Position numbers and translations under genes: made by a program. A stretch of 64,000 bases of DNA from a virus. A model generated the notes under the pieces. The model saw nothing but the letters and a program-made list of their open reading frames with translations, was not told where the DNA came from and did no database searches. Positions 6,364-53,121 of the stretch are shown here, one piece after another. How positions within the stretch are numbered: the stretch's first letter is position 1; every line of letters begins with the position of its first letter. The DNA is taken from positions 64,001 through 128,000 of IMG/VR virus record IMGVR_UViG_3300028800_000061. The stretch is one strand, 5' to 3'.

Positions 6364-6595
6364 ACTGCGTTGCCAATCCGCCGATGGGCACCCTGTGCTG
6401 CTGCTCGGGCTGACCCCAGCGAACATCGAGCGACTGACCGGCGGCTCCCCCATTGTCCTCGATCCGGCCGATCTGGGGGACCTGGCGCTGCCACCGATGA
6501 TGGTTATCGTCCACTACGGCCAGACGGATGCTGCCATTCTCGCCGAGGTGGACACGCGCGGTGTGGTCATCATCGCGGCGCCGCCACAGGATTGA
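6347..6595 (+). CDS. hypothetical phage protein
   Basis: VLLLGLTPANIERL..G.PIV..YGQTDAAI; upstream GGGAAGGG RBS. Confidence 0.6.
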   Translation: MRPVLKLRCQSADGHPVLLLGLTPANIERLTGGSPIVLDPADLGDLALPPMMVIVHYGQTDAAILAEVDTRGVVIIAAPPQD

Positions 6596-6620
6596 CAGAG
6601 CCGGATGTTACCGTTCCGGA

Positions 6621-7097
6621 ATGCTTGAGTTGCGTGCTGCCTGCGGCCTGCCTGGCTCGGGGAAGACAACCGAGGGCCGGCGTTGGGTGAGCGCCGATCC
6701 TGACCACCGGGCGTACGTCGACCGGGATAGCCTGCGGGCCATGCTGCATGACGGCAGGTTTGTCGCGGATATCACCGAGCCGGTCATTGTCGCCGCCGAG
6801 ACAGCGCTGATCCGGGCACTGCTCGCCCGCGGGATCTCCGTGTTCTGCGGTGACACGAACTTCCCTGAGCCGGTGATGGCCATGTGGGTGGAGCTGGCCG
6901 CCGAGGCGGGCGCGGTGTTCACAGTGGCCGATCTGCGGGATGTGCCCCTGCTGGTGTGCATCGGCCGGGACGCGAAGCGGCCGTGCCCGGGCGGCGGCCT
7001 GCGGTCGGCCGGTGAGGGATCGCAGGTCGGTGAAGCGGTTATCCGCCGGTACCACACGCAGTACATCGAGGGCAGGTCCCCGGTCATGGCGAGCTGA
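6621..7097 (+). CDS. AAA_33 / polynucleotide-kinase-like P-loop kinase
   Basis: GLPGSGKTT Walker A, VDRDSLRAML, DTN and VPLLVCIGRDAKR resemble the kinase domain of T4 PNK. Confidence 0.8.
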   Translation: MLELRAACGLPGSGKTTEGRRWVSADPDHRAYVDRDSLRAMLHDGRFVADITEPVIVAAETALIRALLARGISVFCGDTNFPEPVMAMWVELAAEAGAVFTVADLRDVPLLVCIGRDAKRPCPGGGLRSAGEGSQVGEAVIRRYHTQYIEGRSPVMAS

Positions 7098-7331
7098 GCG
7101 CCCGGTCCTCTCCCCCGCGCCCGGGTGCGTGCAAGCTGGGGCCCAGTTGGGGGTTGAGTAACCGGGGGTTCCCAGCCCGCACACACCCTGTGACGGGCAA
7201 GGGTGATTTTAACGCATTGTGACCGGGTCTGGACAGGTTTGCGGTTGTCCTGTTAGGTAGATCATTGGGGTGGCAACAGTAAACCAGCAGTAACCCGGGG
7301 GACGGGGCGGGCAATGGTAACTGCGTGTTGT

Positions 7332-7361
7332 TTGACAATACTAGGTTTAACTTGGTATTAT
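7332..7361 (+). promoter_or_regulatory. sigma70/HrdB-type promoter
   Basis: TTGACA-N18-TATTAT in an AT-rich intergenic region upstream of 7409. Confidence 0.55.
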
Positions 7362-7408
7362 CCGGCTATGCAAAGTTACAGTGCGCGTGGGAGCGGGGGC
7401 TCAGCGTA

Positions 7409-7684
7409 ATGCGCAAACGATTCACCCCCGCCGAACGTAAGCAGTTCACCCCCGGAACATCCGTCGAGTGGCGGAACGGCGGCCACTGGCACCCCGGCAC
7501 GATCTCCGGCCCCATCGAAACCAACAATGGCTGGCACTCGATTCCCCTGACGAACCACGCCGACACGCGCACCGTCGTGTCCGGCCAGCGCATCAGCGGC
7601 AGCCCCGCTTTCATCCGGCTCCCCGCTCCCCCAGCCGCCGAAGCCGCCACAGTGACACAACCCGCCCCGGAGTCGCTGGTCTAA
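7409..7684 (+). CDS. small SH3-like hypothetical protein
   Basis: FTPGTSVEWRNGGHWHPGTI beta-barrel-like pattern. Confidence 0.5.
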   Translation: MRKRFTPAERKQFTPGTSVEWRNGGHWHPGTISGPIETNNGWHSIPLTNHADTRTVVSGQRISGSPAFIRLPAPPAAEAATVTQPAPESLV

Positions 7685-17910: not shown

Positions 17911-18098
17911 CCGGGACCAGGCCGCGCCCTGGCAGGAATTCAGTCATACGGCCCCTTTGGGCTTGTTAGGTCCAATGTGCCGCCGAATGACCCAGCGAAT
18001 CCCTGTAGCAGGCGGTATGGCGCTATTCTTTGACCGCCCGCAAGGTGTAACAGGTGCGATGCAGTGAATGGTCTCACGGGGCAGGGGGTGAGCATTCC

Positions 18099-19598
18099 GT
18101 GACCGTGGCAACGGTAACTCAGGCGTACAAGTACGAGCTGGACCCAACCCCCTCACAGGCGCGGATGTTCGCCTCCCATGCTGGTGGGGCCAGGTTCGCG
18201 TACAACTGGGGTATCGCCACGATCATTGCCGCACTGGATGCGCGGCAAGCTGAGAAGGACGCGGGCGCCGAGCCGACCGTTCCGGTGCCCGCCCACTTCG
18301 AGTTGTGCAAGATGTGGACGGTGTGGAAGGACACCGCCGAGTGGACCGACCGCGCTACCGGGAATGTCACTGATGGTGTGGGGTGGGTCGGGGAGAACTT
18401 CGTCGGCACGTACCAGGCGGCGTTGCGTGATGCGGCCGGCGCATGGAAAGCGTTCTTCGCGTCCCGTTCGGGGAAGCGGAAAGGCCGGCGGGTCGGCCGG
18501 CCCCGTTTCCGATCGAAAGGAAAGGCCCGGGAGTCCTTCCAGGTCCACGGCGCCGTGTTCCGGCTGGCGCCCGGGCCTTCGGCCAAGTACCCGGGCACAC
18601 GGCGGGTCCGCGCGCACACACCAGCGCCGATGGCCTCGTACATAATGCTGCCGAAGATCGGCCCGGTCCGCTCGCACGAGTCGACACGGAAACTGCGCCG
18701 CAGGATTGACAACGGCACCGCGAGGATTGTCCGCGGCACCGTAGCGAAAAACGCCGCAGGCCGGTGGCACATCGCGATCACCGCCGAGGTGCAACGGGAC
18801 GTGCGGCTGAAGCCGTCTGCCCGGCAGCTGGCGGGCGGCATCATCGGTGTCGACTTGGGTGTGCGGGACACGATCACTTTGTCCACCGGGGAGTCTGTGA
18901 AGAACCCAGCTCACCTTGAGCGCTCGCTGCGCCGGCTGGCGGCCGCGCAGCAAACTGTCGCCCGGCGTACCAGGATCGGCCGGCCGTCCTCGGCGCGGCG
19001 GTTGAAAGCTGTCGAGCGGGTCGGCCGGATCCACACCCGGGTCAGTAATCTCCGGCAGGATTACCTGCACAACCTGTCCACCCGGCTGATCCACGAGCAT
19101 GCTGGCATCGGGGTGGAAGGTTTCGACCTGCAGCAAGTTGCAGCCCGCGGCGGCAGGAGCGTGCCCCGGCGGGTGCGACAGGTGCGGAACAGGCTCCTGG
19201 CCGGATCCGCACTCGGAATGTTCCGCTGGCAACTGCAATCGAAAAGCGCCTGGTACGGGTGCCAGGTGCTGGTCACCGGCGCGCAAGCACCGTCGGGCAG
19301 GACATGCTCCCGGTGCGGGACGGCAAAAGCCACGCCGATCCCGCCCCATCTGGAGCTGTTCCGGTGCCCGCAGTGCGGCCACGTCCAGGATCGGCGGCTT
19401 AACACTGCCCTGGTTCTGGCGCAGTTCGCGCGTGAAACGAAAACGACGTCCGGGACTGGCTCGGAGTCGCTAAACGCCCGTGGAGAGGATGTAAGCCCCG
19501 GGCCCGTCCGCAAGGGCAGGACCGGGCGATCCTCGTTGAAGCGGGAAGCCCGCCCCAGGGGGCAACCCTCGGGTAAGACGGGCACCCCCAGCACGTAA
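18099..19598 (+). CDS. tnpB: solo TnpB (IS607/IS605-like) with RuvC-III Asp replaced by Arg, probably nuclease-dead
   Basis: AYKYELDPT..HAGGARFAYNW, GRPRFRSK, LPKIG.VR.HE, GVDLGV, VEG, CSRC..CPQC zinc finger, DRRLNTA in place of DRDxNAA; no tnpA nearby. Confidence 0.9.
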   Translation: MTVATVTQAYKYELDPTPSQARMFASHAGGARFAYNWGIATIIAALDARQAEKDAGAEPTVPVPAHFELCKMWTVWKDTAEWTDRATGNVTDGVGWVGENFVGTYQAALRDAAGAWKAFFASRSGKRKGRRVGRPRFRSKGKARESFQVHGAVFRLAPGPSAKYPGTRRVRAHTPAPMASYIMLPKIGPVRSHESTRKLRRRIDNGTARIVRGTVAKNAAGRWHIAITAEVQRDVRLKPSARQLAGGIIGVDLGVRDTITLSTGESVKNPAHLERSLRRLAAAQQTVARRTRIGRPSSARRLKAVERVGRIHTRVSNLRQDYLHNLSTRLIHEHAGIGVEGFDLQQVAARGGRSVPRRVRQVRNRLLAGSALGMFRWQLQSKSAWYGCQVLVTGAQAPSGRTCSRCGTAKATPIPPHLELFRCPQCGHVQDRRLNTALVLAQFARETKTTSGTGSESLNARGEDVSPGPVRKGRTGRSSLKREARPRGQPSGKTGTPST

Positions 19599-19750
19599 GG
19601 GCTGGGCGTCCCCAACCACCTGCCGAAAAGCAGGCAGCACAACTCAACAGAGGCAAGCGCAGACGTTCGACCGGTGGGCGAGGGGAGGCTCGCGAATCCC
19701 CTGCTGGCTACTGCTGATGTCCGGGACGAGGGGCCTAGCGCAGGTAACGT
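19460..19750 (+). ncRNA. putative TnpB omega-RNA scaffold and guide (3' boundary uncertain)
   Basis: AAACGCCCGTGGAG..GTAAG..TGAAGCGGGAAG..GGTAAGAC pattern overlapping the tnpB 3' end; stems GAGGAT/ATCCTC and CCTGC/GCAGG, with GCAA and GTAA loops. Confidence 0.65.
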
Positions 19751-32199: not shown

Positions 32200-35100
32200 C
32201 TATTTGGTTGCGAGCGTGAGACCGTTAGTACCGTTCCTGCGGTTGTAACGCAGGGTGTACTTCTGGTCAGTAGCCTGAAGATTGCTGCCGGTCGGCCATT
32301 GCATCTTCAACGTCAAATTCAGTGTCTGCTGGGAAGATGTGACACCGAACCCGCCCGCTCCTTGCGATGCGGCCAGGGCCACGCCTGTGGCCGGGTGCAC
32401 AGTCCCAGGTGCAGTTGCGCTGCTGAGCGCCCTCATGGCAGCAGTCACATGCGGCAGCCCGGCGATGATTCCTTGCGCGAGTCCTTGTGACACCATCATC
32501 CCGTGCTGGTACATCACCGTCGATGGCGACTTGATCCCCAGATCTTTCTTGATCTGGCTGACCATGCCTTTAGCGATCTTCGTCATTTCCTTCGTGATCG
32601 CTTTTTCTTGCGCTTCCAGCCCGGATAGGAAACCCTTCCCGGCCTGGGCGCCCGAGTCATACATGGCGTTAGCGGCGGTTTGCCCAAGCGACTTAGACGC
32701 CGAAGTGATACCAGACTCGGCTTTGTTGATCGCCTTAATGTTCCCCGGGACCTGCAATAGCGCCTTCGCGATGGCCAGGCCCTGCACGGGCCCGGCCTGG
32801 ATGATCTGGTTGATGTAATCCTTGTTCAGCCCCAGTTTCGACAGTTGGCCGATCGCCGACTTGAACTGGTTTATCTGGGACAGGTCGGCCTGCAAGTTGG
32901 CCAGAATGTTCTGCGAGGTGATCGGCCCGCTACCCGCTGCCGACACGAGATCAAACGTGCCAGCGACGCTACTGGCCGTGTTCGTGGCGAACGTTTTCGC
33001 CTTGGAAATCGTTGACATGATCGCGGATCGTTTGGTGGCGAGGGCTTGCAGTTTGTTGTTGTCAGCCTCGATCCACTTGGTTACGTTGCTCTCCGTCTGA
33101 GAGGAGATATCGCCCGCGTCAAACGCTTCCTTGATGTAGGTGACCAGTTTCCCGGCTGCCGATTTGACTTTCGACGCAGTTCCCTCAAGTCCCGCGACTA
33201 TGCCGTTGCCGATTTCAACCGCAATGTTCTGCATGACCTTCGACGGTGAGCTGATCCCGAGCACGCTCTTGATTGACGATATGGCCGCGCTGCCGATACT
33301 GCCTGCCGCGTCACGTACGGCCCCGAGGGACGCGGTGATTCCGTGAACGAAACCCATGATCAGGTTCTTGGCCAGGTCGTACAGCAACGTGACCGCACCG
33401 TTGAAAATGGTCCGCATCACGTTGAGGATGCCGTGGATCTCATCCGAGGTCAGTTTTTTCAGGTCGGTCCACGCTTTCGCCCAGTGCCCGGTGATGATGT
33501 CCAGGAACAGTGCGATGGCGTCGCGGATTATGGCCAGCTCGGCGCGGATTAGCGCGGCGACAGTATCCCAGACTAGTTTAACCGTGTCGCGTATCAGGCC
33601 CCACGCGATAGTCCATGCGGCTTTAATCACTGCCAGGTCGATTTTGATCGTCGCGATTATCTCGGCGAGATACGTCTTGACGATGAAACTTACAACCGCC
33701 CAGACGACCCGTGCGACCTCTTCGATTTCCTTGTGGTTCTGCTCCCACCACACCCTGAATGCTGCAATCTGCTGCTTCACAAACACAAGCGGGCCGTGAA
33801 CGAACCAGTCGATCACGGCACCCGCGGCGCGCATCGCCACCGCCCAGGCGGATTTGAAAGCGTTCGCGACATCATGAACGATGTCACGGACCAGTTTGCT
33901 GTGCTCATACAGTTCGTACAGGCCAAGCGCGAGTGCGCCGATCGCAATGATCGCGACACCGACGGGGTTAGCTGAGAGAACTGCGCCAAGGCCCTCCACC
34001 GAGGCGGTGACCAGCTCCACCCCCACCGCGATAGCGATAACCGCCCCAGCGAACGCCGCCATCTTCTCGTGGTGGGAAATGAACTCCATGAACTTGTCAA
34101 CCGCCCGCACGACTTTGGTGAAGATGGGCAGCAGTTTCGTCCCGAAAGTGATGACCAGGTTCTCGACATCGGCGAGGAACTGAGTCCAGGCGAAGTGCGC
34201 TGTCTTCTCCGTCTCAGACCACGACTTGCCGTATCCTGATACCGCCTTGCCTATGCCTTCGTACTTGGTTCTGATGTTGTCCAGATTCGACATCAGGGAC
34301 AGCATGGCTTTGTCGGACCGGCCGCCGCCGAACAGTTTCGCCATGACCTGCGAGGCCTGGGCTGCTGACAGCCCGGACGCTTTGAAGGCTTTCTCCATGT
34401 CCGACAACGCGATGTAGATGCCGTCAGGTTTCCGCAGATCCGTGGCGATCTTGTTGACTGTCAGCCCGTAGGAATTCATCACATCGGCCAGCGACTTGTT
34501 TTTCAACGTGATATTGTCGGTCGCCAGTCCAAGTGACCGCAGGAACGTGTTCGCCTCCTTCGACCCTGATGTGACCATGGAAAGCCCCATGGTCAACCGG
34601 GTTGAAGCTGTCTCCGCAGTGTTACCCCGGTCAGTCAGGTACGCCAAGGCCGCACCCATTGACCGGATCGAAATGCCCATGGCCGCGGCGGTAGGCGCCC
34701 AGTTCTTAATTGACTGGTTAAAGTTCTGGAAGCGCATGTCGCCCTGGCCGACGATCGCGTTCAGCAACCCGGCGGTCTTGGCGGCGTCACTGGTGTTCAG
34801 GTTGAACGCCTTCATCACCGATGACAGGGCGTACGTTGTGTCTTCCAGATCGGCGCCGTGGATCTGCGCGAGCTTGGCCGAGTTGGCGACAGTCGCAAGC
34901 GAGTTACTCAGACTCAGGCCAGCGCTAATTGGGTGGTAGAGAGCCGTCGCGATGGCTGTGCCAGATTCCCCAGTCTGGTATCCGATCTGGAGGATCTTCT
35001 GGGACAGTGCGGCCATGCTTATACCGGTCAAGTGCGCGGCGGTGTACAACTGGGTGACGGCAGCCTGAAACTTCATCGCTTTGTCGATGGAGTAACCCAC

Positions 35101-35889
35101 GGCGACTGCGACTCCGGCGATGGCCAGCTTCGTTGCTGAGCCGAGTCCGGCCATCGCGCCGGCGTTCCGCTCGTTCGCGGCCGCTTCCTCGTTGGCCATA
35201 TCCCGTGTCAGCCGCTCGTCCGCTGCCAGGGTCTGCTGAGCTTTCGCCGAGGTCGCCGCAGCCCGGGCGGACGCTATGTGGGCATCCCGGAGTGCCGCTT
35301 GCACCTCGAGGGCGCTCTTGGCCATGTCCGCTTCGAGCGCCTCAGCTTCAGCGAGCTTGGATTCGGCGGCCGCCGCTTCAGCCGCCGACGCAGCCAGCGC
35401 TCTCTGCTCCTCCGCTGCTGCTGCGGCGGCGGCGCCGGCCCGCTCAGCTCCGGCAGCCGCCTCAGTTGTCGCCTCGCCGGCGGCCTGCGCACCGGCGGCG
35501 AGGCGCGCTTCCGCTGCGGCAGCCTCGGATGCGGCGTCGATTGCGCGGGCGAGCCCATCCACCAGCAGCCACTCGGCTGAGGTGAGATCTGTTTCGGCGG
35601 CGACGGTTTGCATGGCCGCGGTGGACAGTTCCTCTTGCGCCGCGGCCTGCTCGGTCGCGGCTGCTGTCGCAGCCTCGGATGCTGCGGTAGTGTCGGCGGC
35701 GCCGGTTGCGATCCCGCCCGCGCTGACCGCACCAGCGGTTGCCTCGGTTGATGCGCGAGCCAGATCTTGCACCTCAGCGATTGAGGCCATCAGCCGCTCG
35801 TTGCTGGCGATCATCTCGTCGATGCCCGCAACCCATTTACTGGCATCCGCGACAAACTCTTCGATCGCTGGTGGCAGCAGTTCAGACAC
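32200..35889 (-). CDS. tape measure protein (TP901-like core)
   Basis: 1229 aa, Ala-rich helical, TMP core motif, W/F-periodic repeats, LGISSPSKVM and LGIKSPSTVM. Confidence 0.92.
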   Translation of the reverse strand: MSELLPPAIEEFVADASKWVAGIDEMIASNERLMASIAEVQDLARASTEATAGAVSAGGIATGAADTTAASEAATAAATEQAAAQEELSTAAMQTVAAETDLTSAEWLLVDGLARAIDAASEAAAAEARLAAGAQAAGEATTEAAAGAERAGAAAAAAAEEQRALAASAAEAAAAESKLAEAEALEADMAKSALEVQAALRDAHIASARAAATSAKAQQTLAADERLTRDMANEEAAANERNAGAMAGLGSATKLAIAGVAVAVGYSIDKAMKFQAAVTQLYTAAHLTGISMAALSQKILQIGYQTGESGTAIATALYHPISAGLSLSNSLATVANSAKLAQIHGADLEDTTYALSSVMKAFNLNTSDAAKTAGLLNAIVGQGDMRFQNFNQSIKNWAPTAAAMGISIRSMGAALAYLTDRGNTAETASTRLTMGLSMVTSGSKEANTFLRSLGLATDNITLKNKSLADVMNSYGLTVNKIATDLRKPDGIYIALSDMEKAFKASGLSAAQASQVMAKLFGGGRSDKAMLSLMSNLDNIRTKYEGIGKAVSGYGKSWSETEKTAHFAWTQFLADVENLVITFGTKLLPIFTKVVRAVDKFMEFISHHEKMAAFAGAVIAIAVGVELVTASVEGLGAVLSANPVGVAIIAIGALALGLYELYEHSKLVRDIVHDVANAFKSAWAVAMRAAGAVIDWFVHGPLVFVKQQIAAFRVWWEQNHKEIEEVARVVWAVVSFIVKTYLAEIIATIKIDLAVIKAAWTIAWGLIRDTVKLVWDTVAALIRAELAIIRDAIALFLDIITGHWAKAWTDLKKLTSDEIHGILNVMRTIFNGAVTLLYDLAKNLIMGFVHGITASLGAVRDAAGSIGSAAISSIKSVLGISSPSKVMQNIAVEIGNGIVAGLEGTASKVKSAAGKLVTYIKEAFDAGDISSQTESNVTKWIEADNNKLQALATKRSAIMSTISKAKTFATNTASSVAGTFDLVSAAGSGPITSQNILANLQADLSQINQFKSAIGQLSKLGLNKDYINQIIQAGPVQGLAIAKALLQVPGNIKAINKAESGITSASKSLGQTAANAMYDSGAQAGKGFLSGLEAQEKAITKEMTKIAKGMVSQIKKDLGIKSPSTVMYQHGMMVSQGLAQGIIAGLPHVTAAMRALSSATAPGTVHPATGVALAASQGAGGFGVTSSQQTLNLTLKMQWPTGSNLQATDQKYTLRYNRRNGTNGLTLATK

Positions 35890-39012: not shown

Positions 39013-39972
39013 TCAGATGACCCGCCGGTACGGCTGGACCAGCGCCTGAGCTTCTTTCATGTACCAGCCAGGCGTGTTCACCGAACTGTCCCCGTGACCC
39101 GGTACGGCCTGGATGGTGGTGGCCGTCGCCCCGCGCACCAGGGCCTGGGAGACAGCGAACAGGATGGCCGCTTGGATGACGGACTGCGGCAGGGTGGTGG
39201 CCATCACCCCCACCGGGTGCTTGTAGGCCAGCGGTGAGGACAGGGTGAGCAGGCCGGGCCCGGACAGTGCGGTCGCGTTGGTGACGGTGAACGTCTCCTG
39301 CGCGCCGGGGTCGTGCAAGGTGCCGGTGGCGCCGGAGACCATCCCCGGCGGCGGTCCCCACCCAGTGCAGTCGTCCACTTGAAGGGTGACGTCATCCTCT
39401 GCGGCTGCAGCGGCAAGTGACCCGTGCGGCCACCCGTTGATGTAGGTGGTTTCGACTTGGTAGCCGCTCCGGCCGCCCCACCACCACGACGCGTACCCGG
39501 GTGCGAGAAGGACCGCCGAGCCGCCATCACCGGAACCGCCAGGGCTGGTGGTGCCGTACACCCCGATGACCGGTTTCTCGATCTTGTAACCGGTCGCGGG
39601 GATCGGGTTCCACTCGGCCGGGAATGTGACCGTCGCGGCTACCCGGCCGGAGAGCACCGCGGTTACCGGCGAGCGGGACAGCAGCAACCGTGCGATCCCG
39701 GGCCCGAACATCTGGAATCGCAGATCTCCTGGCCCGAACAAGGTCTCGGTGTCCACCGTTGCGCGCAGCGGCTGGTTGCAGAACCCGTCGATCATCGAGG
39801 TAGCCCGGCGGCACAAGTTCAACTGCTCATCGAATTGCTGCTGCTCGGTCGGCCTCGATCCGGCCCCCACGGTGTTCCACACCACACCTGTAGGGGCGGC
39901 GATCAGCATCGCCGGCAGTACGTACGGGGTGCCCGGGCTGGCTGGGACACCGGCCGGGTTGTACTCATTCAC
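39013..39972 (-). CDS. head-tail adaptor
   Basis: CRRATSMIDGFCNQPL..YINGWP..LPQSVIQA, SPP1 gp15/HK97 gp6-like. Confidence 0.7.
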   Translation of the reverse strand: MNEYNPAGVPASPGTPYVLPAMLIAAPTGVVWNTVGAGSRPTEQQQFDEQLNLCRRATSMIDGFCNQPLRATVDTETLFGPGDLRFQMFGPGIARLLLSRSPVTAVLSGRVAATVTFPAEWNPIPATGYKIEKPVIGVYGTTSPGGSGDGGSAVLLAPGYASWWWGGRSGYQVETTYINGWPHGSLAAAAAEDDVTLQVDDCTGWGPPPGMVSGATGTLHDPGAQETFTVTNATALSGPGLLTLSSPLAYKHPVGVMATTLPQSVIQAAILFAVSQALVRGATATTIQAVPGHGDSSVNTPGWYMKEAQALVQPYRRVI

Positions 39973-40303
39973 CGCGGGCCACAGCCAGGTCCTCGGCTGG
40001 CAGCACGAGGATCTTGAATCCCAGGCCCTGATGTTCGGCAATCTCAGTGGCCCGCTGCTGGTATTCCTGCACTTGCGCCGGGGTGCAATCCGGGGAAATC
40101 CGGACGATCAGCGTTTCGCCAGGAGCGACTACGGTGACGCACTCGCGCAGCAGATCCCGCATCTCATCTGGGGTCAGGGATGACACTGGCGGGAGCACCA
40201 TGAGCCGGTGCCTGTCCTGGGAAGCCATCTGCTCCTGAAACCGGTCACGCCACTCCTCTAGCTGCGGCTGAGTGAGCCGGGCGCCGTCATCCCAACTGTC
40301 CAT
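39965..40303 (-). CDS. hypothetical protein
   Basis: ATG with upstream AAGG; sits within the operon. Confidence 0.5.
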   Translation of the reverse strand: MDSWDDGARLTQPQLEEWRDRFQEQMASQDRHRLMVLPPVSSLTPDEMRDLLRECVTVVAPGETLIVRISPDCTPAQVQEYQQRATEIAEHQGLGFKILVLPAEDLAVARGE

Positions 40304-42164: not shown

Positions 42165-44305
42165 TCAGGACCAGGTACCGGTCGCGCCGGAACGGTCAGA
42201 CTTCTGAATTCCCTGCAGAAGACCGCAGTAGAACGGGGCGTTCACGACGAGGCTTCCGAACAGGAACATGCTGTAACGGAACGAGGCGTCGATCACCGGC
42301 CACGAAATGCTCAGGTAATCCTGCACCGCGACGAATTCGACCACGTTGGAAACGTTGCTCCACGCGAAAGGCATCGTGTAAGACATCAGCATCGCTGTGC
42401 CTTGTGTCAGCCACGGGTGGACGACGACTTTCAGCGGGTTGCGGGTGATCGGGTTCTGGAACTCCGAGACGGCAGCACCCAGCCGAACTCCCGGCACCTC
42501 AGCCTGCTCAACGAACAGGCGGTAAGCGCCGTTAGCGGAGCTTGAGTTGATGATGTCGTTCGACAACCGCATCACATCGCCACCTTCGGCGATGATCTCA
42601 GCCGGGTCGGCCCTGTAAGCCCCGTAGGTGTTGCCCGTTCCGTCCCACAACTGCTGCAGGGCGTTGTTCAGCACCGAGGTTTTCAGAGTGTCACCGATGG
42701 TGTTCGAGAAGTAGCCGGCTTGCCAGTTCGACGGGTAAATCGCACCACCAGTGGTTGCGGAGTGCCCCGACAGAACAGACAGCAGGCCCTCTTGGTCGTT
42801 GCTTGACGACGTTCCCGAGTCCACCGTCGGCGCAACCGTTCCCGACACGGGCAGAGCGCCTTGCAGGGTGTAGTACTGGCCACCGACCTGCGTGACATCC
42901 AGGTAGTACGTTCCCGCGCTGGCCCCCGTGGTGACGTACAGGTTGTACCACTGGGCGCCCGCGACAGGGCTGATCTGGACATCCACAACCTGACCGGATG
43001 ACCATGCGACTGACCCGCCCGTGCTGGCCGCGGTCTCACCGAAGTAGGTGTTAGCCGTGACCTTCACGAACACGTTTGTCGTCACACCGGTCAGCGGGCT
43101 CTCACCGGAGTTCGCGGAACGCGCGGTGAGCGTCGGAGTTCCCGGAGTGGAAACAGCGATCGAAGTAGCCCCAATATGCGCGGCCTCTTCGTTCAACATG
43201 AATTCCTGCAACAGCAGGAGGTTGGCGAGCGCGGAAATGTCTTCGAAGCCTTGACCTGAGAACTGTGCGCATTGATTGTTACTCGCCGTAAATGGCGGGA
43301 CCGGTCATTTCTGCCGGTCTCTCACGGTTTACCATCCCGTGAGATCGGACTGTCTCATAACCTGCGGCCGGTACCCCGTAATGCCCCGGGGTGTCGTCCA
43401 TTGCACAGGTTCCGCACATACAGTCTCTACACGCCGGCGGGCATCGCCAGCGCTCGGGATTCCCCGTAGGTGGTGGGGTTCCCCGAACAGTGCAGTTTGC
43501 TCCGGCACCTCACGGCGCCGGGGGCCCGCTAGTTGAGCCAGGACAGGTTCTCAGACAGACCCCAGAACCGGTAAGGGATCTTGAGGTCAACTGCGTCCTG
43601 TGTGCCAGTGCCTGGCAGGTTGAGTGGCCAGTTGACACTGCCACTGTTACCGGAAATCGACCCCGATCCCTGAACAAGCTCGGGGATGGCCAGACGGACG
43701 AACTTGCCACCAGACGGGCCGGTTTGTGAACCGGAAACACCGGTGATGACTTTCCGCTGCCTTGCAACACCCTGGCCAGGTGTCCTGGCCAGCTTGTTGC
43801 GGATCGGCGAATACACCGGGTAGATGAGAGAGCTCGGTGCAACCAAGTCGAAGGGCACGAAGCCGGACGACAACGGCGACGTGAGCGTAATGCTCTTGCC
43901 GAGCGCGTCGGAAAGCTGGGTGTTCAGCTGGCCGACGAGCTGCTGCACTGCCTGGTTTTGCGGGCTGGCGGCCATGAATGCGCCGAACTGGCCAGCAAAT
44001 TCCGGGCTGAGGCCCTTAATGACCTCGGCTGGGCTTTCGATGCCCTTTTTGATCGCTGAGCGGAACGACAGTTCCGCTTTCATGCTCCGGCGGAAGATCT
44101 GGTCGTCATCGTCCAGTGGACGGTTACCACCAGGGCGGCAATAGCCGACACCCTTGACAAGGGTCGGCATCTTGTCACTCAGCATCAGGTCCGGTGAGTG
44201 GTAATTCTTTGCGTCAGCGTCGGCGTACCACGACGGGTTCGCGTCCGCGCGCTCCAGCGCAGCCTGGCCGGCTGTGCCGTAGGGAAGAACGTCAGTGCTT
44301 GTCAC
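42165..44305 (-). CDS. major capsid protein, two exons (44305-43536 and 43269-42165), 624 aa after splicing
   Basis: Follows the protease/scaffold gene; FDL.APS.LIYPVYSPIRN motif; spliced junction reads ENLSWL-AQFSGQGFEDISALANLLLLQEFMLNEE in frame. Confidence 0.88.
43270..43535 (-). ncRNA. group I self-splicing intron, no ORF, 266 nt
   Basis: P1 GGCU/GGCC with U-G pair; P2 with GUGA loop; P3 CUGCAC/GUGCGG; P4 UUCGGG/CCCGAG; P7 GACUG/CAGUC; P8; P9 stems; terminal G. Confidence 0.92.
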
Positions 44306-44338: not shown

Positions 44339-47248
44339 TCAGTTAGGAGGGACTGATGCCGCTCCCAGCTTGTCGAGGACCGAGAGGGCCCTTTCCCGGG
44401 TTCCCGGGTCAGATGATTTGGCGCGGTCCTCGATGTAGGCGCGGTAAGACAGTTCCTCGATAGATGCGCGTGTGCGGGCTTTCTCGGCGGCTTCTTCCAC
44501 CAGGTTGCGGCGTTCCACGGGAACGGCCGGCGTGGTGGCTTGCCGGGCCAGTGCGCCCCTGACGGGGGCCATCGCTGGGTCGGGCTTAGAGCCGAGCTCG
44601 TCGACCTGCTTGCGCAGTTCAGTGATCTGGGTGTCGTAACGCTCGGCGAGCGGCGCGATCTGCTCGGCGAGAAGTGATTTCAGCACGTCCGCTGTCAGCC
44701 CTGGTGCCGCAGCCGGCTGGGTGACCGTTTCGGGTGCGGTGTGCGGGTTGCGGCGCTCGTACTTGGCAATGGCCTTCTTGAACGCCTTGGCCAGCTGCTC
44801 CTCAGTCAGCCCATCTGGGGCTTTCCCGACAGTGCTGATTCCTCCCTGCGCGGGTGGAGTGTGCGGTGTCGGGACATTCCTGGCACCAAGATCTGGTGGC
44901 AGGACACTCTTCGATGTGGCCATCGGGCACAGGTCAGGGAACGTCGCCGCGATGTGGTCGTGCATGCTCTGCAGCGCCACCCTGGCCTGCTCACGGGAAC
45001 TGTTGGAGTAGTAGGTGCGCGCCGCGCTCGGGCTCCCCGGTGCGACCCGGTTGTTGTCACCAGTGTTGGCCGGGCTTTCAGCTTCGTGCCCGGCCGTGAT
45101 CAGCGGCCGGTCGAACTGCTCCGGCTCCGGAGTGTGGTGGGATGGCGGGATGTTCGGTGAGCCACGATCTGTGGCGTCCTCCGACGCAGTGGGCCCGGAC
45201 AGGTACGGCCGTTGGAACTGGCCTGGCTTCACGCCATCACCCGGCTTGATGTGCTCAGTCGGGTACATGTCCTGGAAGGCCTTGTGCAGCAGCGCGCGGC
45301 CGTCCTCGACGGCGGCCGGGTGCATGCTTTTCACCGCTTGCGCGGCACCCACCAGGGCGGTCAGGCGGCCCGCTTCGGTGGTCTTGCCCGCGGCCGCGGC
45401 CGCGGCCGCCAGCTCACCAAACCACGACTCGTCGATGCCAGCGCCGATCGCTTTCAACGACGGGTAGCTGTCCATGACGGCCTGCGTGTCGAAGGCCGCG
45501 CAGGCCATGTCGTGCATCCGGCCGACCGTGTACGGCGCATCAGTTTTGACTGAGGACGGCACCTTGTCCGGTGTCCGGTCCGGGTCGGTTGGCAGGCCAG
45601 CATCCGGCTCGAACTGCTCGACGGTGGATGTGCCATCCGGCTCGCGGTGCTCACCGACTGGCTTGGTGTCACCTGGCAACGGCCGGCGTGCGGCTTTCTC
45701 CGTGCCCGCCTGGGCGAGGATCTCGTCGGCGGCAGCCTGGGAGATCATGCCCATCTCAACGGACTTGGCCAGGGTTGCGGTGAGCGCTTCCACTGCGGCA
45801 CGCTTCGCTGCTTTGCCCATGCCGGGGAGCTTCTTGCCGCATCCGCCGCAGAACTTGGCATCGGTGTCGGCGTGGTAGTTCTTGCCGCATCCCTTGCAGG
45901 TGCGCCCGCCGGTCTTCGCTGTGTCCGCCTCGACCGGGGTGGTGCCGGTGTCCGCGGTGTCCTTCGCTGCGGCCTTGCCGGAGCCTTTGCAATCCGGGCA
46001 GTCCATCTTGCCGCCACGGATCTTCCCGTCACCCTTGCAGGTGCCGCATTTCATCCCGGAAGCATCAGGGTCACCGTCGCTAGATGGCGCCCCATTCGCT
46101 TTCACCAGGTCGAGATCGCTGTCGATCTCGCCGGCTCCGCTGGCCTTCCACGTGTCGGGGATCTTGTCTTCCATCCCGAGCGCAGATGCGCGGCGTTTGA
46201 TGTGCGAGCGGGCCGCAGCCGGGTCCTTGGCGTTGCCGGCCAGGTGAATGGCGTTATCCAGGTCCTCCCCGTTCTTGATCGGGAACGATCCGTCGGGCAT
46301 CGCTGCACCCGTGTCCGCTGCGGCGTCACGCTGCGACTGAGTGAAGTCGCGCTTCGCCAGCCACCGCTCGGCGCCGTCGCGGTCACCGCCGAGACCTTCG
46401 GCGTTGCCCTCGGCGTGCCAGCGCATCCAGTCGGCGCGCTTGGCCAGGTACTCGGTACCGCCGGCGATGCCCTTGACTGATGGCTCCCGCGAGAGCCACT
46501 GGCGGCGGGCGGCCTTATATGCGGTGCGGGTTGGCTCATCGGCTTTGGCGACGGCATCAGCGTCGTCATCGTCCGGGTCGTCAGTGCTGGCGTCCTCGCC
46601 GGCGGCGGGCAGGTTTGGTGGCGGCTCCTCTGCGTCCTCACCGCCGTCCGGGTTCTGCCCTTGATCGGCGGGAACAGGGCCGGCTTTGGTCAGCAGGTCC
46701 TCCGTGTCGGCCGACTCGTACTCACCGAACATTTCCCCGACCAGCTCCATGGATCCGCCGTCGGCCGACTTGGCCAGGACCAGCCCGCAGTTTTTGTTAG
46801 CGGGCCTGTCAACAAGTGACAGCTCAGCCAGTTCGCCGCCGTTGATGATCCCACCGCGGGCTTTCCCGCTCGGATCACGGGAAATGACCGGCCGGGCGAC
46901 ACCGATGCTGTACGCGGTGAGGACACCTTTTTCCACCAGCCGCTTTGCGACCGGCTCGACTACGAGCGATTTGACGTAATGCCCGCCGTCGCCGTCCCGG
47001 TCGATTTCGATGGACAGCGCCTTGCCGGCGGGGTCGCGGCGGGACTGGTGCTGAACCCTGACGTTGCCGCCAGTGTCCCGCCACTCCTGCAGCGCTTTCG
47101 CCGACCAGACCGGGTCGACGATCTGCTCGTCAGTGTCAACGCTGCCGTCCGTGGCCTTGCCGTACACGACAAGGTCCCCGTCAGCGTCCTTCACGAATTT
47201 GACAATTGGGAAGCTGACATAGGTCAGTTCGGAAACGGCTGTTGCCAC
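44339..47248 (-). CDS. prohead protease/scaffold multidomain protein
   Basis: N-terminal HK97-like protease (VRVQH, AYSIG, ELSLVDRPAN), AMPDGSFPI..AI domain, CxxC zinc fingers, C-terminal coiled coil. Confidence 0.85.
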   Translation of the reverse strand: MATAVSELTYVSFPIVKFVKDADGDLVVYGKATDGSVDTDEQIVDPVWSAKALQEWRDTGGNVRVQHQSRRDPAGKALSIEIDRDGDGGHYVKSLVVEPVAKRLVEKGVLTAYSIGVARPVISRDPSGKARGGIINGGELAELSLVDRPANKNCGLVLAKSADGGSMELVGEMFGEYESADTEDLLTKAGPVPADQGQNPDGGEDAEEPPPNLPAAGEDASTDDPDDDDADAVAKADEPTRTAYKAARRQWLSREPSVKGIAGGTEYLAKRADWMRWHAEGNAEGLGGDRDGAERWLAKRDFTQSQRDAAADTGAAMPDGSFPIKNGEDLDNAIHLAGNAKDPAAARSHIKRRASALGMEDKIPDTWKASGAGEIDSDLDLVKANGAPSSDGDPDASGMKCGTCKGDGKIRGGKMDCPDCKGSGKAAAKDTADTGTTPVEADTAKTGGRTCKGCGKNYHADTDAKFCGGCGKKLPGMGKAAKRAAVEALTATLAKSVEMGMISQAAADEILAQAGTEKAARRPLPGDTKPVGEHREPDGTSTVEQFEPDAGLPTDPDRTPDKVPSSVKTDAPYTVGRMHDMACAAFDTQAVMDSYPSLKAIGAGIDESWFGELAAAAAAAGKTTEAGRLTALVGAAQAVKSMHPAAVEDGRALLHKAFQDMYPTEHIKPGDGVKPGQFQRPYLSGPTASEDATDRGSPNIPPSHHTPEPEQFDRPLITAGHEAESPANTGDNNRVAPGSPSAARTYYSNSSREQARVALQSMHDHIAATFPDLCPMATSKSVLPPDLGARNVPTPHTPPAQGGISTVGKAPDGLTEEQLAKAFKKAIAKYERRNPHTAPETVTQPAAAPGLTADVLKSLLAEQIAPLAERYDTQITELRKQVDELGSKPDPAMAPVRGALARQATTPAVPVERRNLVEEAAEKARTRASIEELSYRAYIEDRAKSSDPGTRERALSVLDKLGAASVPPN

Positions 47249-47291: not shown

Positions 47292-47963
47292 TCAGGCGGG
47301 CATGCAGAAGGGCCGCCCGCGGAGGACGGCCCTTCTGTCAGTTGCTGGCGGGTGGGTTAATCTCTCACCCTCGGATTGCCGCATCCGTTTATGTATGCCG
47401 TCGCGGCTGTAGCGGGTGGTGCAGGGCGGGCATGCGGGGGCGATGTTGGTGATATCGACGTTCAGGTAGTTGCCGTCGAGTTGGACGGCGAACAGTTCAG
47501 CGGTGCCGCCGATGGTCCGGCCCCACGATGCGAGCTGCCCGCACCAGTGGCACGGGTGCGGGCCCGGGCCGATCGCGTCATACAGCACTTTGCGGTGCAT
47601 GTAGACGTCGCCGTTGGCGTCGGCCAGCGGGTGGGTGCGGGCTTTGACCCGGATCCGGCCGTTGAGCATGATGGCTCCGGCGCCGTTCGGGCGGCGCAGG
47701 ACGATCGCAGGGTCTCCGTGTTTGCGCCAGCGGCCGTAGTGGGTGCTGCACCAGCCCAGCGATCGCGCTCGCTGGGTGCATTCCGGGAACTTGCACACAG
47801 GTGCAGGGGCTTGCCTGGGCGGAGCGATTGGGTCACCTGTGCGCCGCCACTGCTGGTAGTGCCGCCAGCAGTAGCGCATGGCAACCCAGCGTTCGGGGCA
47901 TTCCGGTACGCGGCAGATCTTGTCCCCTGCTGGCAAAGTCAGAAGGCCGGGCTGGTCTGTCAC
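47292..47963 (-). CDS. free-standing HNH endonuclease-like protein with degenerate active site
   Basis: Two CxxxxC..CxxHY repeats, YMHRKV, CHWCG; AVQLDG..N..N..CPPCT where DH..N..CxxCN is expected. Confidence 0.7.
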   Translation of the reverse strand: MTDQPGLLTLPAGDKICRVPECPERWVAMRYCWRHYQQWRRTGDPIAPPRQAPAPVCKFPECTQRARSLGWCSTHYGRWRKHGDPAIVLRRPNGAGAIMLNGRIRVKARTHPLADANGDVYMHRKVLYDAIGPGPHPCHWCGQLASWGRTIGGTAELFAVQLDGNYLNVDITNIAPACPPCTTRYSRDGIHKRMRQSEGERLTHPPATDRRAVLRGRPFCMPA

Positions 47964-48340
47964 GGTCCTGTCTGATCTTCTGTAGGCACAGGTGCCTGGT
48001 CCCGGCTGGCTGCGGCGTTGAAGGTGGCGAGGGCCTGTTTGGCGGCACGGTGCTGCATGTGGTCCACTCCCCGCTCGGTGAGGCACCAGCCGGTTGTGGT
48101 TACGACATCACCGCCGGGGGTCGCTTCGGCCATGAACCAGGCCCAGGACCCAATGGCTGCTTTTCTGCGCATGGTGACGGTGGCGTTCACCCGGATCGCC
48201 TGCTCACGTGCGTGAGATTGCGCGCGGGCGCTGAAAAGGTTGCAGATGGCACGTCTGCGCCGTCTCGCGATTATCATCGCGATCATGCCAAAACCGCCCG
48301 TGAGGGCCACTATGGTAACGAATAGCCACGCAATTGTCAC
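47960..48340 (-). CDS. membrane-anchored hypothetical protein
   Basis: N-terminal TM followed by RRRRR; operonic overlaps. Confidence 0.5.
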   Translation of the reverse strand: MTIAWLFVTIVALTGGFGMIAMIIARRRRRAICNLFSARAQSHAREQAIRVNATVTMRRKAAIGSWAWFMAEATPGGDVVTTTGWCLTERGVDHMQHRAAKQALATFNAAASRDQAPVPTEDQTGP

Positions 48341-50206: not shown

Positions 50207-50653
50207 CCCATCGAGTACGCCAGTGAGTTGCCCTGCGGTGAGCCCACCCGCAACCGCAGCGAGAAGGGCTTGCTCCAGCCGTGTCACCCGCGTTGCCACC
50301 AGGCCGCCCACCCGCCGGTCACCCTCGTCAAGGATCGACTGCAGTGAGCTGTCCGGCGCGTCCAGGTCGATGCTGGTGATCTGGACGGCCGAGTTCCGGC
50401 CGAGCCGCCAGCCGTCCGCCCACAACTCCCGCATGATCCTGGTGAGCGCCACAGTTAGCGCTGCGGTAACCCCGGTTCGTTGCAGGTACCGTTTCGGGCC
50501 ACGCGGCCGCGCTGCTGCACCTGCCCCGTTGCCGCTAGCCAGCCACCCGGCAGCGAAATCGGCGGGCAAAACGCCCTGCAGTTCCCTGGCGAGCCGGCCA
50601 GCGTACTGGGCTGCTAGCTGCCGGTCCCGCTCCCACCCGGGCCAGTCAGGGCT
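49913..50653 (-). CDS. MuF/SPP1 gp7-like head morphogenesis domain, probably reached by -1 frameshift from the portal
   Basis: TQTE, WATAGDATVCAVCDGN, FPSGDDQPPAHPNCRC; frame is open from the slippery site. Confidence 0.85.
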   Translation of the reverse strand, partial: SPDWPGWERDRQLAAQYAGRLARELQGVLPADFAAGWLASGNGAGAAARPRGPKRYLQRTGVTAALTVALTRIMRELWADGWRLGRNSAVQITSIDLDAPDSSLQSILDEGDRRVGGLVATRVTRLEQALLAAVAGGLTAGQLTGVLDGLLGNEPAALVVTQTEVTWSMSLAALAYYQQARIAAVGWATAGDATVCAVCDGNEAAGLIPVGDEFPSGDDQPPAHPNCRCSLYPGDTGQSMMPADVI

Positions 50654-53121
50654 TTTGGGCTGCCATCATCCCCGCCACCCTTGTTGAGCTTGGCCCGGTT
50701 CATCGCCCCGTCCCACGGCCCGGTGTCCGTGCCCACAACACCGACCCATGCGAGGGTGCTTGTTTTGCCTGCCCGTTTGAGAGCGAGAGTCCGGTGCCAG
50801 CCGTCAGCGATCTCGTACTTCGCCTGGCCGGGTACTTTCACCAGCACGACCGGCGCGAGTTGCGTCCCGGCCCGGATGGATGCGGCGATCGCTTCTACTT
50901 TCGCCGGGTTGCGTGCACCGCCCGGGCGGCGGGCCATCTCGATCCGGGACAGTGCCACGGATACCGGCCCATGCCACCGTGCATCTTTGACCCACTCCAG
51001 CACGGCGGCCGGGTAGTGCCGTGCCAGGTACGCGTACACCTCATGTGTCAGATCGGCGTGGCTGGTCTGCGCCGCGATCTCTGCTGTGCTCTTGGTGCTC
51101 AGCATCGACCGGGCTACATCGCACACCTGATCGGCGGTCAAGCCCTTGCCCAGGTCCTCCTCGATGCTGGCGAGCAGTGCAGCGGGCAGATCTTGCGGCG
51201 CCCACCCGGTGACTGTGCCGCCTTTGCGCAGGTGATTGCGCAGCAGATCCAGTTCTCGCAGTTGCCCTTTCCTCGCGGAGGTTGGAGTGGCGTTCGCGGA
51301 GCCGACCGCACCGGAGCGCGCACCGGAGTGCGCCGGGGTGCCCCGGCCGGACTGGCTGACCGCGCCGCCGATTGCCCGCGGTGCCGGCTGCTGGGCGACC
51401 GTGGCGGGCCCCGCTGGTGGCGCCTGCTGCGGGGCGGTCGACGGGCCGCTTGTTCCTGCGATCTGCGCTGGATCCAGCGGTGCAGGTGTGGGCCGGGAGC
51501 CGGTGACCTGCGGTGCGGTCGGCGCACCAGCGAACGGGACGAAACCCTCGCGGACAGTCGCCCATCCAGGGTCGGAGGTGACAGGAAGGTTCCACGGGTC
51601 GCGGCCCAGCTCGACACGGGCCTCATCGACGGAGCACAATCCTGCGCTAATCTGCTCCACAAGAAGGGTTGTCAGAGTGGCGGCGTCTTCATCTTCTTCC
51701 AATCCTTCCCATTGCCACTCAAGGTCTTCCTGCCCGCACACATCTTGCAAGATCCTGTCGAATACCGCGGCCTTCAGCCACATTAGCAAGGGGACGGTTC
51801 CCTTGCGCTCCTGAATGTCCTGCCCGGCTTTCGCCATCTGGTTCGCCGCACCGACACTCTGGGTCGCGGAGACACGCGGTGAGATGCCCAGTTCCATGGG
51901 CATGACGGAGAACGCCATGCACACCTGGGTCATGATGATCTCATCGAACTGGTCGGCCAGGCTCGCGGGCTTCTGCGGGTCCACTTTCGACCCGCCTGGG
52001 AGAACAATGATTTTGTGCTTCCATGCTTGATCACCGGCAAGGGCATTCAGCGCGTCTTGAAGCTCCCGGATCTGCTGCGGGGTCATGTTCGTGTCACCCG
52101 GCGAAACGAACAGGCCAGGAATGGATCCCTCTTGGAAAAAGTTCAGCTGATACTGCTGCCGGTTCAACCCAGCCATGACCGGGATAATCGCCCGCTCAAT
52201 GGGCGCCTGACCGTACGGTGTCCACGTGCGGGCGGTGTACGGCAGGTACATCAGCTGATCGCCCCGGTACTCCGCGATGAGCCCGTCATCTGCGGTTTCC
52301 TCAACCAGCAGCGTCATCAGGTCCACACGCGGGACACCGTATTCGTATTGCTGATAGGCTGGGTTGGGCGGTGCTGGCACTCCGCCAAGCACATCCACCA
52401 GTGGCCGGATAAGTGTCCCGTCGATAAGATCTAGCGCGGCCACGTTTGATCCGAGCAGGCCCTTGTTCCGCACTTTCGACGGGTGCACGTACAGCGCCAG
52501 GGCGTCGGTAACGAACACTTCCTCAAGCAACGCGTCGAACCATGAGGAAAAATCGCCGTAGCGCGGATCGGGCTGGCGGAAGAACTTGACAGCCTGCGCC
52601 CTGCGCTCCGCGAAGTCGGCCATGCCGCTGTGCGAGCCCCGCAACGATTTCGCGGCGTCCCTTGTCAGGGCAATGTTCCACCCGACGCCACGCAACTCCG
52701 ATTTGCGCAATTCGATGCACGCACGGGCGACACTGTACAGGTCCGCGAGAGTCCGCAGAGTCTGGAAGTCGGCGAGCTTTCCAAGGCCTTCCGTGCCGGG
52801 CATGCCCATAGGCATGTCCCAGCCGATCGGGTACTGGAAGCGCCTTATCGGCGGCCTTTCCTCACCCGGTTCCGGAGTGTCAATCGGGACTGGCTCTATG
52901 GGGGCGAGCGGCCCGAACATGCCGGACAGGAATGTTCGCCAGTCTCGTGGCAGCCCGCCGTGCTGGCCGGCTGACCGGCCGGAGGTCCACTCGTTGTAAG
53001 AGGCAACGAGCGGGGACGGGCCCGGGCTGATCGACGGCGGTGTGACCGTGGCGAATCCGCCTGACCGGCCAGCGGCTGTCGCTTTCAGGGTGCGGGTGAT
53101 GGCGCGCAGGTCCGTGGGCAC
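50614..53121 (-). CDS. portal protein with C-terminal ParB/Srx-like domain
   Basis: LRTLADLYSVARACIE, LIDGTLIRPL, PYGQAPIE, FQEGSIPG, SVDEAR.ELG; C-terminal PVVLV..YEIADGWHR. Confidence 0.9.
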   Translation of the reverse strand: MPTDLRAITRTLKATAAGRSGGFATVTPPSISPGPSPLVASYNEWTSGRSAGQHGGLPRDWRTFLSGMFGPLAPIEPVPIDTPEPGEERPPIRRFQYPIGWDMPMGMPGTEGLGKLADFQTLRTLADLYSVARACIELRKSELRGVGWNIALTRDAAKSLRGSHSGMADFAERRAQAVKFFRQPDPRYGDFSSWFDALLEEVFVTDALALYVHPSKVRNKGLLGSNVAALDLIDGTLIRPLVDVLGGVPAPPNPAYQQYEYGVPRVDLMTLLVEETADDGLIAEYRGDQLMYLPYTARTWTPYGQAPIERAIIPVMAGLNRQQYQLNFFQEGSIPGLFVSPGDTNMTPQQIRELQDALNALAGDQAWKHKIIVLPGGSKVDPQKPASLADQFDEIIMTQVCMAFSVMPMELGISPRVSATQSVGAANQMAKAGQDIQERKGTVPLLMWLKAAVFDRILQDVCGQEDLEWQWEGLEEDEDAATLTTLLVEQISAGLCSVDEARVELGRDPWNLPVTSDPGWATVREGFVPFAGAPTAPQVTGSRPTPAPLDPAQIAGTSGPSTAPQQAPPAGPATVAQQPAPRAIGGAVSQSGRGTPAHSGARSGAVGSANATPTSARKGQLRELDLLRNHLRKGGTVTGWAPQDLPAALLASIEEDLGKGLTADQVCDVARSMLSTKSTAEIAAQTSHADLTHEVYAYLARHYPAAVLEWVKDARWHGPVSVALSRIEMARRPGGARNPAKVEAIAASIRAGTQLAPVVLVKVPGQAKYEIADGWHRTLALKRAGKTSTLAWVGVVGTDTGPWDGAMNRAKLNKGGGDDGSPKALTGPGGSGTGS

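Follow-up and report, generated by a model that had tools for sequence, protein, structure and literature searches.

How can a phage obtain its capsid protein from a gene whose reading frame is interrupted in the most conserved part of the protein? This question is raised by a 64,000-nucleotide (nt) stretch of a metagenomic viral genome (bases 64001-128000 of IMG/VR record IMGVR_UViG_3300028800_000061, referred to here as the window), in which 266 nt on the minus strand, at window positions 43270-43535, separate two pieces of a putative major capsid gene. The record comprises 159,823 bp, is estimated to be 98% complete and has a G+C content of around 65%; it represents an uncultured high-GC rhizosphere siphophage of ~160 kb. 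An earlier note, made from the letters of the window, had read the insert as a group I intron without an open reading frame (ORF). After following up this proposal, we are confident that the insert is a group I intron. We also think it very probable that this compact, ORF-less element is spliced out of the sole HK97-fold capsid gene of the phage, in which it would be a selfish and non-autonomous passenger.

On the minus strand, a single gene is found in two pieces, namely, an ORF at 43529-44305 (258 aa, with the end ...ENLSWLN before its stop) and an open frame at 42165-43271 that starts with CAQFSGQ... Both pieces match the same PHROG family, phrog_13692, at successive positions of its profile. 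When the second piece was used as a protein query, hundreds of relatives were found, and the full-length homologues (605-634 aa) read ENLSWLAQFSGQGFED uninterrupted over the join. The closest full-length relative, P0003, aligns with the window by tblastn in two segments that are separated by the insert and show no further gaps, and no core-less mini-introns were found elsewhere in the capsid gene of the window. The parts of the gene are as follows.

43536..44305, minus strand: capsid gene exon 1, with a GTG start; 256 codons plus the CT of a Leu codon; last base U; matched by P0003 residues 2-256 with 92.5% identity.
43270..43535, minus strand: probable ORF-less group I intron of the 'type A' family, 266 nt; first base C, last base G (omega-G at 43270).
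42165..43269, minus strand: capsid gene exon 2, whose first base, C, completes the Leu codon and is followed by GCA CAG TTC; stop codon included; matched by P0003 residues 256-622 with 87% identity.
43529..43531, minus strand: in-frame TAG of the P1 loop, reached two codons after the intron begins, which terminates translation of the unspliced RNA.

The insert falls precisely at the border of the Leu and Ala codons in the conserved ...ENLSWL/AQFSGQGFED... block, an almost invariant sequence that is the most conserved of the capsid family. In the DNA of intron-less homologues, this region reads TGGCT[T/G/C]GCNCAGTTC, and in the window TGGCT is separated from CGCACAGTTC by 266 nt. A repeated C makes two candidate boundaries, one base apart, compatible with collinearity; we chose 43535..43270 because it alone gives an exon 1 ending in U together with an insert ending in G. 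The terminal G at 43270 is thus fixed by collinearity of both protein and DNA, and a terminal G is also present in the inserts of the relatives L019, L084, and L205. Exon 1 ends in ...S W L, followed within the insert by AAC TAG, and the two exons (770 + 1105 nt) add up to 625 codons including the stop, and therefore to a spliced product of 624 aa. An intact homologue matches the two exons with 87-92% identity and reveals neither a frameshift nor a stop in them. Exon 2 lacks a start codon at the join, and the closest ORF start lies around 20 codons further in, at a TTG (43211). Thus, the ORFs, the tblastn alignment, and the intron-less DNA bear out what the earlier note had claimed for this gene: that it is split by a 266-nt insert at 43270-43535 with a terminal G at 43270, that removal of the insert restores a frame of 624 aa, and that unspliced RNA stops at an intronic TAG. 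The note had also proposed an alignment to intron-less homologues, and these are collinear over the SWL/AQF junction.

The same allele was found in other data from the rhizosphere. The contigs of one run, which may be the source of the record, cover the entire stretch, and in two of three further runs, contigs bridge the 5′ splice site, with intronic identity of at least 99% in all three. No intron-less joint was found in the contigs of these 4 DNA runs, although the pieces in three of them are short and therefore do not exclude an intron-less allele.

The sequence evidence that the gene encodes a capsid protein is weak: the Pfam family SU10_MCP matches below its cut-off, the identity to the capsid protein of Mufasa8 is 25.5%, and a profile search of the PDB sequences gave nothing meaningful. 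An AlphaFold2 model of P0003 (built with 69 sequences; mean predicted local distance difference test score 74.3) was matched by Foldseek to the capsid proteins of SPO1, Pa223, SU10, and HK97 with a probability of 1.00 and E values down to 1.6e-10. Judging by this modelled fold, the split gene is an HK97-fold major capsid gene within a structural module, and no second capsid gene was found in the genome, at its estimated completeness. Together with the split frame, the fold and the gene order (given below) support the earlier claim that the capsid protein is obtainable only after RNA splicing. In the P0003 model, the intron site falls directly after a beta-hairpin (residues 235-254) and before a long helix (264-289). 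The phage likely infects an actinobacterium, as its closest cellular capsid homologues are located in Streptomyces and Actinoallomurus contigs.

Is the insert then a group I intron? All the helices named in the earlier note are present in the window with the sequences that it gave, and they can be laid out along the minus strand in the following way.

43523..43539, minus strand: P1, formed by exon GGCU and an intron C with the internal guide GGGCC; the pair at the 5′ splice site is a U.G wobble.
43502..43521, minus strand: P2, an 8-bp hairpin with a GUGA (GNRA) tetraloop; compensatory change at 8/8 pairs; loop G and A invariant.
43490..43495, minus strand: P3 5′ strand, CUGCAC, whose partner GUGCGG is at 43412-43417; forms a pseudoknot with P7; 94.6% paired, 5/6 pairs compensatory.
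43432..43487, minus strand: compact P4-P5-P6 domain; P4 UUCGGG/CCCGAG, J4/5 GAA, P5 CCCC/GGGG, J5/4 AAU, P6 CGCUGGCG/CGCCGGCG; no P5abc.
43412..43427, minus strand: R element, comprising the P7 5′ strand G[A]GACUG with its bulged A, J7/3, and the P3 3′ strand GUGCGG.
43359..43411, minus strand: P8 (AACCUGUG/CGCAGGUU) and its inner stem P8a, from covariation and the minimum free energy (MFE) fold.
43347..43358, minus strand: S element AUGAGACAGUCC, comprising J8/7 and the P7 3′ strand, from the alignment and from the RF00028 consensus in family members.
43284..43344, minus strand: peripheral 3′ domain, the hallmark of the family, with P9 (loop GAUGGUAAA), P9.1 (loop CAGAAAUGA), and P9.2.
43270..43283, minus strand: conserved 3′ tail AGUAACAA...G, ending in omega-G, from the alignment.

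The wobble at the splice site is formed in the window by U 43536 of the exon and G 43526. Folding of the window copy by itself yields an MFE structure that contains P1, P2, P4, P5, P6, P7, P8, P9, P9.1, and P9.2, with a z score of -4.9, and none of 200 shuffles folds equally well. No endonuclease ORF was found in the 266 nt, where the mechanically called ORFs are of 86 aa at most and span the structured core; the insert is too small to accommodate an endonuclease.

The strongest support for these helices comes from comparison with related inserts. Together with the inserts of L019 and L084, that of the window forms a group, 'type A', whose members have in common a 3′ domain made up of P9 (loop GAUGGWAAA), P9.1, P9.2, and the tail. 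A sequence profile (nhmmer) found 50 non-redundant full-length type-A copies, and 30 homologous inserts from viral metagenomes, sampled from these, were aligned with the window copy by MAFFT with no structure input (31 rows; alignment A4). On this alignment, we scored P1-P9.1 as drawn in the earlier note, leaving P9.2 out of the count. The proposed partners are paired in 91.0% of cells, as opposed to 32-43% when the partners are slid by 1-3 columns, both sides change at 51 of the 70 pairs, and none of 500 shuffles reached any of the five measures. P3, P4 (97.3% paired), P5 (100%), P7 (99.5%), and P8 (91.9%) all contain compensatory changes, P9 and P9.1 are supported by pairing as well, and covariation thus backs the helices of the earlier note from P1 to P9.1. 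The U-G pair that the note had placed at the 5′ splice site is found as U:G in 29 of the 31 sequences. L2 is a GNRA loop in all 31, and the G:C pair of P7 adjacent to the bulged A, which from sequence evidence is the putative guanosine-binding pair, is likewise present in 31/31, with compensatory change at 4/6 pairs of P7.

Two further observations were made on these inserts. The 9-nt loops of P9 (window 43320-43344 for the hairpin) and P9.1 (43300-43318) and the tail are almost invariant in A4, and their stems covary freely. In addition, an in-frame stop occurs by eye no more than 3 codons past the 5′ splice site in the window, L019, L084, and L205 (CAACUAG, CUGA, CAAUUAG, and CAACUAA, respectively), and the intron of L100 also starts with CAACUAA, although its upstream exon is cut off, so that the frame is not assignable. 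Such an early stop in the P1 loop would keep ribosomes out of the ribozyme core.

The family is not restricted to this gene. The 3′-domain pattern, a search that is blind to the host gene, was found in at least 118 stretches of IMG/VR, where only a handful would be expected by chance as estimated from the information content of the pattern. When the flanking exons of 20 of these were tested, 14 encoded major head proteins of five PHROG families (10, 752, 1357, 29, and 2263), 3 encoded major tail proteins (phrog_4574), and 3 had no match; additional type-A copies are present in the window's own capsid family. The intron family appears to be almost confined to major virion genes. A connection to phages in culture was found through one family member, L088, which by blastn matches the intron in gene 34, encoding a minor tail protein, of the mycobacteriophages Baka (BAKA), Optimus, and Wanda and of other Cluster J phages. 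The A4 profile matches the entire BAKA gene-34 intron with E = 8.7e-58, which makes the window intron a new addition to a family in which the splicing of one member, that of BAKA, has been demonstrated by experiment. The connection is at the level of the profile, because direct blastn of the window intron against phage records found no match; megablast of the capsid gene against the same records found none either, nor did tblastn of exon 1.

Within the capsid family, the distribution of introns is sporadic. Most close capsid homologues have no intron at the site used in the window. L205 has a type-A intron of ~70% identity at the identical CT/C GC site of a diverged capsid gene, and the copies that are most similar by eye, L100 and L123, are located at residue 577 of other diverged capsid genes. 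In IMG/VR relatives of the capsid gene, inserts occur after P0003 residues ~156, 243, 256, 261, ~325, ~591, and ~600, with more after ~162, ~270, ~281, and 577. At least 10 distinct insertion sites were counted over the capsid family, five of them within a block of ~40 codons (PYRFWGLSENLSWLAQFSGQGFEDISALANLLLLQEFML). Some capsid relatives are divided into 4-5 exons, with 3 to 4 or more introns each (L176:899-4906, which is the same as L187, L051:2262-6040, and L178:11258-13821). In several relatives, the capsid genes contain introns of 1.0-1.4 kb with ORFs of 268-369 aa that encode DUF559 (a Vsr-like nuclease fold) and a helix-turn-helix (HTH) domain (L051:3495-4496, L021:1798-2904, L176:2155-3105, and L099:3247-4050), and by their domains these proteins are candidate homing endonucleases of a PD-(D/E)xK-like type. 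Neither a DUF559 gene nor a second copy of the intron family was found in the genome of the window phage.

Two other arrangements were observed. A shorter subfamily (~256-265 nt) occupies major tail protein genes of phrog_4574 (L131:5692-5947, L188:5423-5681, L094:808-1068, and ~15 similar loci), where ~41-61 codons separate it from the beginning of the upstream open frame. In one viral contig, L166:5716-7600, at least 4 group I introns stand in tandem within ~1.9 kb (7300-7600, 6878-7160, 6536-6778, and 5716-5978), and the exons between them are very short, with open frames of no more than ~43-55 codons.

From these data, one can propose how the capsid protein would be made. The late capsid transcript would adopt the P1-P9.2 fold, and an external guanosine occupying the P7 site would attack after the U of the U.G pair (UGGCU/C); the freed exon 1 would then attack after the terminal G at 43270. 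In this way, CT would be joined to C-GCA, which would restore the conserved ...SWL-AQF... of the 624-aa protein, and the unspliced RNA would give only a 258-aa fragment ending at the TAG of the P1 loop. We infer that the window copy is spliced, and spliced efficiently, and it would probably do so without the help of a protein.

Several results weigh against this account. The Rfam group I model, RF00028, misses the window copy both at its gathering score of 50 bits and when a 501-nt slice is searched at E <= 10, and no group I match was obtained with it in the whole 159.8-kb genome or in L019 and L084. Infernal with this model was one of the checks suggested in the earlier note, which had regarded the lack of a match as a refutation; by that measure taken alone the claim would have failed, and homologues of the insert were therefore sought. 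Among these, RF00028 does score two members of A4 (L151:754-985 with 56.7 bits and L151:1061-1298 with 43.6 bits), and its alignment of the L151 copies places P1-P6, R, P8, S, and P9 on the same segments as A4. In addition, three inserts in the capsid genes of relatives reach the gathering score. Because two members of the same alignment score, we read the miss as a limit of the model's sensitivity, a blind spot, and not as the absence of the fold; most of this widespread family escapes RF00028. RF00028 shares with the window family the core order P1-P2-P3-P4-P5-P6-P7-P3′-P8-P7′-P9 and the R and S consensus, and the window differs from what is usual in the family in having P7 GACUG/CAGUC instead of GACUA/UAGUC and J8/7 AUGAGA instead of GAAGAUA. 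The other adverse points concern the fold and its activity. P6 and P8a pair less well over the family (72%), partly because of alignment error. P1 is short, with 4 exon pairs plus 1. The earlier note had also suggested a P10 pairing of GCG with CGC, which remains a possible helix: it is there in the window, as proposed, but it has only 3 bp and is not consistently matched in relatives, since by eye a counterpart exists in L019 and none in L084, L205, or BAKA. No RNA runs carrying the stretch are listed. Finally, the evidence from BAKA is reverse transcription PCR (RT-PCR) in vivo, which does not speak for splicing free of proteins.

The missing RNA runs and the RF00028 miss can also be cited in favour of the insert being simply retained, leaving either a broken capsid gene in a defective phage or a capsid made of two polypeptides. 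We give this very little credence, given that the core helices are all intact and match the covariation of the family, that the exons have kept their identity to the intact homologue and their open frame, that exon 2 lacks a start codon at a break that falls within an almost invariant block, and that the same allele is found in contigs of several metagenome runs and BAKA, a member of the family, does splice. The ribosome could in principle cross the gap by translational bypass, as in T4 gene 60, and the stop codon just past the take-off region would fit such an event; the bypass gap of gene 60 is 50 nt, far below the 266 nt found here, and matched codons for take-off and landing are absent. 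Elements of another kind, for example a group II intron, a miniature inverted-repeat transposable element, or an insertion sequence, fare no better, as the boundaries are explained without terminal inverted or direct repeats. The group I topology supported by covariation accounts for the whole insert, and bypass and these other elements have next to no probability left and are effectively refuted.

If the insert is indeed a group I intron, it might nevertheless need a host or phage protein, or the translation of exon 1, in order to fold or splice efficiently. The pared-down P4-P6 domain and the short P1 are in line with such a need, as are L9 and L9.1, which are strongly conserved and for which no partners were identified, and splicing in the family is documented in vivo only. 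Nevertheless, compact bacterial group I introns with a small P4-P6, such as that of the Azoarcus tRNA-Ile, self-splice, and the GC-rich stems of the window copy together with the GNRA L2 of all 31 sequences suggest a self-sufficient fold, so that we regard dependence on a helper as unlikely. The earlier note had gone further in proposing a late checkpoint, in which splicing and thereby capsid synthesis would be tuned by guanosine triphosphate (GTP) or stress and the intron would be kept for that purpose. Group I splicing does require a guanosine cofactor, and the intron interrupts the late gene with the heaviest expression and belongs to a family found mostly in major head and tail genes. However, its presence is sporadic, relatives are intron-free at the window site or have introns at no fewer than 7 other sites of the same gene, some of them with DUF559 and HTH ORFs, which fits a mobile parasite, and there is no sensor element outside the standard core. 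The checkpoint thus found no support and appears quite improbable to us. Because of this sporadic, multi-site pattern in conserved blocks and the endonuclease-bearing introns of relatives, the intron of the window is best read as a selfish mobile element that is now non-autonomous. Whether such elements make up a lineage of their own is a more speculative matter: it is possible, although we rather doubt it, that the window intron stands for a separate lineage of compact ORF-less introns, mostly missed by Rfam, that is specialised on highly expressed virion genes and moves among unrelated sites and genes while encoding no endonuclease itself, for instance by reverse splicing or with nucleases acting in trans.

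The genes around the split capsid gene are arranged in the window as follows.

50614-53121, minus strand: portal.
47292-48086, minus strand: free-standing HNH endonuclease gene (PHROGs 5351, 9443, and 1271), with the portal and the protease-like gene on either side, 3.7 kb upstream of the intron.
44339-47248, minus strand: 969-aa protein with a weak match to head maturation proteases.
42165-44305, minus strand: split capsid gene.
39013-40041, minus strand: head-tail adaptor.
32200-35889, minus strand: tape measure.

We considered whether the HNH gene could mobilise the intron in trans and found no evidence either way. Elsewhere in the window, the only Rfam match at the gathering level is a Transposase-2 RNA (RF03015, 48.1 bits, 19538-19610), which overlaps the 3′ end of a transposase-family ORF on the plus strand (phrog_506, 514 aa, 18054-19610). 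Weaker Rfam matches in the window (ncS035, sR18, and others) were attributed to chance.

The practical value of these results lies in exposing the blind spot of RF00028. Here and in many metagenomic relatives, the capsid gene is miscalled as two or more 'hypothetical proteins', for a reason that goes unflagged by the standard Rfam model; with A4 as the basis of a covariance model, many capsid and tail gene calls in soil viromes would be mended. The results also tie metagenomic copies to an intron that had already been shown to splice, that of BAKA. In other respects, the window would be a further case of a phage relying on a ribozyme for its shell, and it opens no new mechanism.

The earlier note had implied that group I introns in capsid genes are rare, which does not agree with the literature: introns of this type in capsid and tail genes of high-GC actinophages have been known to splice since 2013, and the window is an ordinary further example. 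Pope et al. (2013, PMC3706429) demonstrated by RT-PCR that the 265-bp ORF-less intron of BAKA is spliced during infection, with an exon that ends in U and an intron that ends in G. They also reported an 820-bp intron in the major capsid gene of LittleE, for which RT-PCR and N-terminal protein sequencing through the junction demonstrated splicing and whose 5′ 156 bp are 98% identical to the BAKA intron, and they termed this intron type 'most likely group I' (PMC3706429). The covariation described above settles that assignment for the BAKA-type family. A capsid-gene intron in the lactococcal phage Tuc2009 is also mentioned, as a citation, in that paper (PMC3706429). Such introns are a recurrent finding in more recent work as well (PMC12880540).

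The closest known counterpart of the window intron is thus that of gene 34 in BAKA and Optimus (Cluster J, Omegavirus). Both belong to the same family, lack an ORF, are of nearly the same length (265 vs 266 nt), follow an exon ending in U, end in G, and share the P9 loop GAUGGUAAA, the P9.1 loop CAGAAAUGA, and the tail AGUAACAA, and both interrupt a gene for a structural virion protein in a large siphophage of high GC content. The BAKA intron differs in having a tail protein gene as its host instead of a capsid gene, as well as other P1 guide, P6, and P8 sequences, and its splicing is a result obtained in vivo, whereas the window copy is known from its sequence. LittleE resembles the window in that an intron resides in the major capsid gene of an actinophage; judged by its published description, it differs in its 820 bp, in the LAGLIDADG-like ORF on the opposite strand, and in the capsid family and insertion site. 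More distant parallels are the three group I introns in orf142 of Staphylococcus phage Twort and those of the intron-rich Jug jumbo phages (PMC12880540), which, like the window intron, are small, mostly ORF-less, and inserted in essential, conserved genes. In contrast to these phages, the window gene contains a single intron, which belongs to another intron family and to a high-GC lineage of soil phages.

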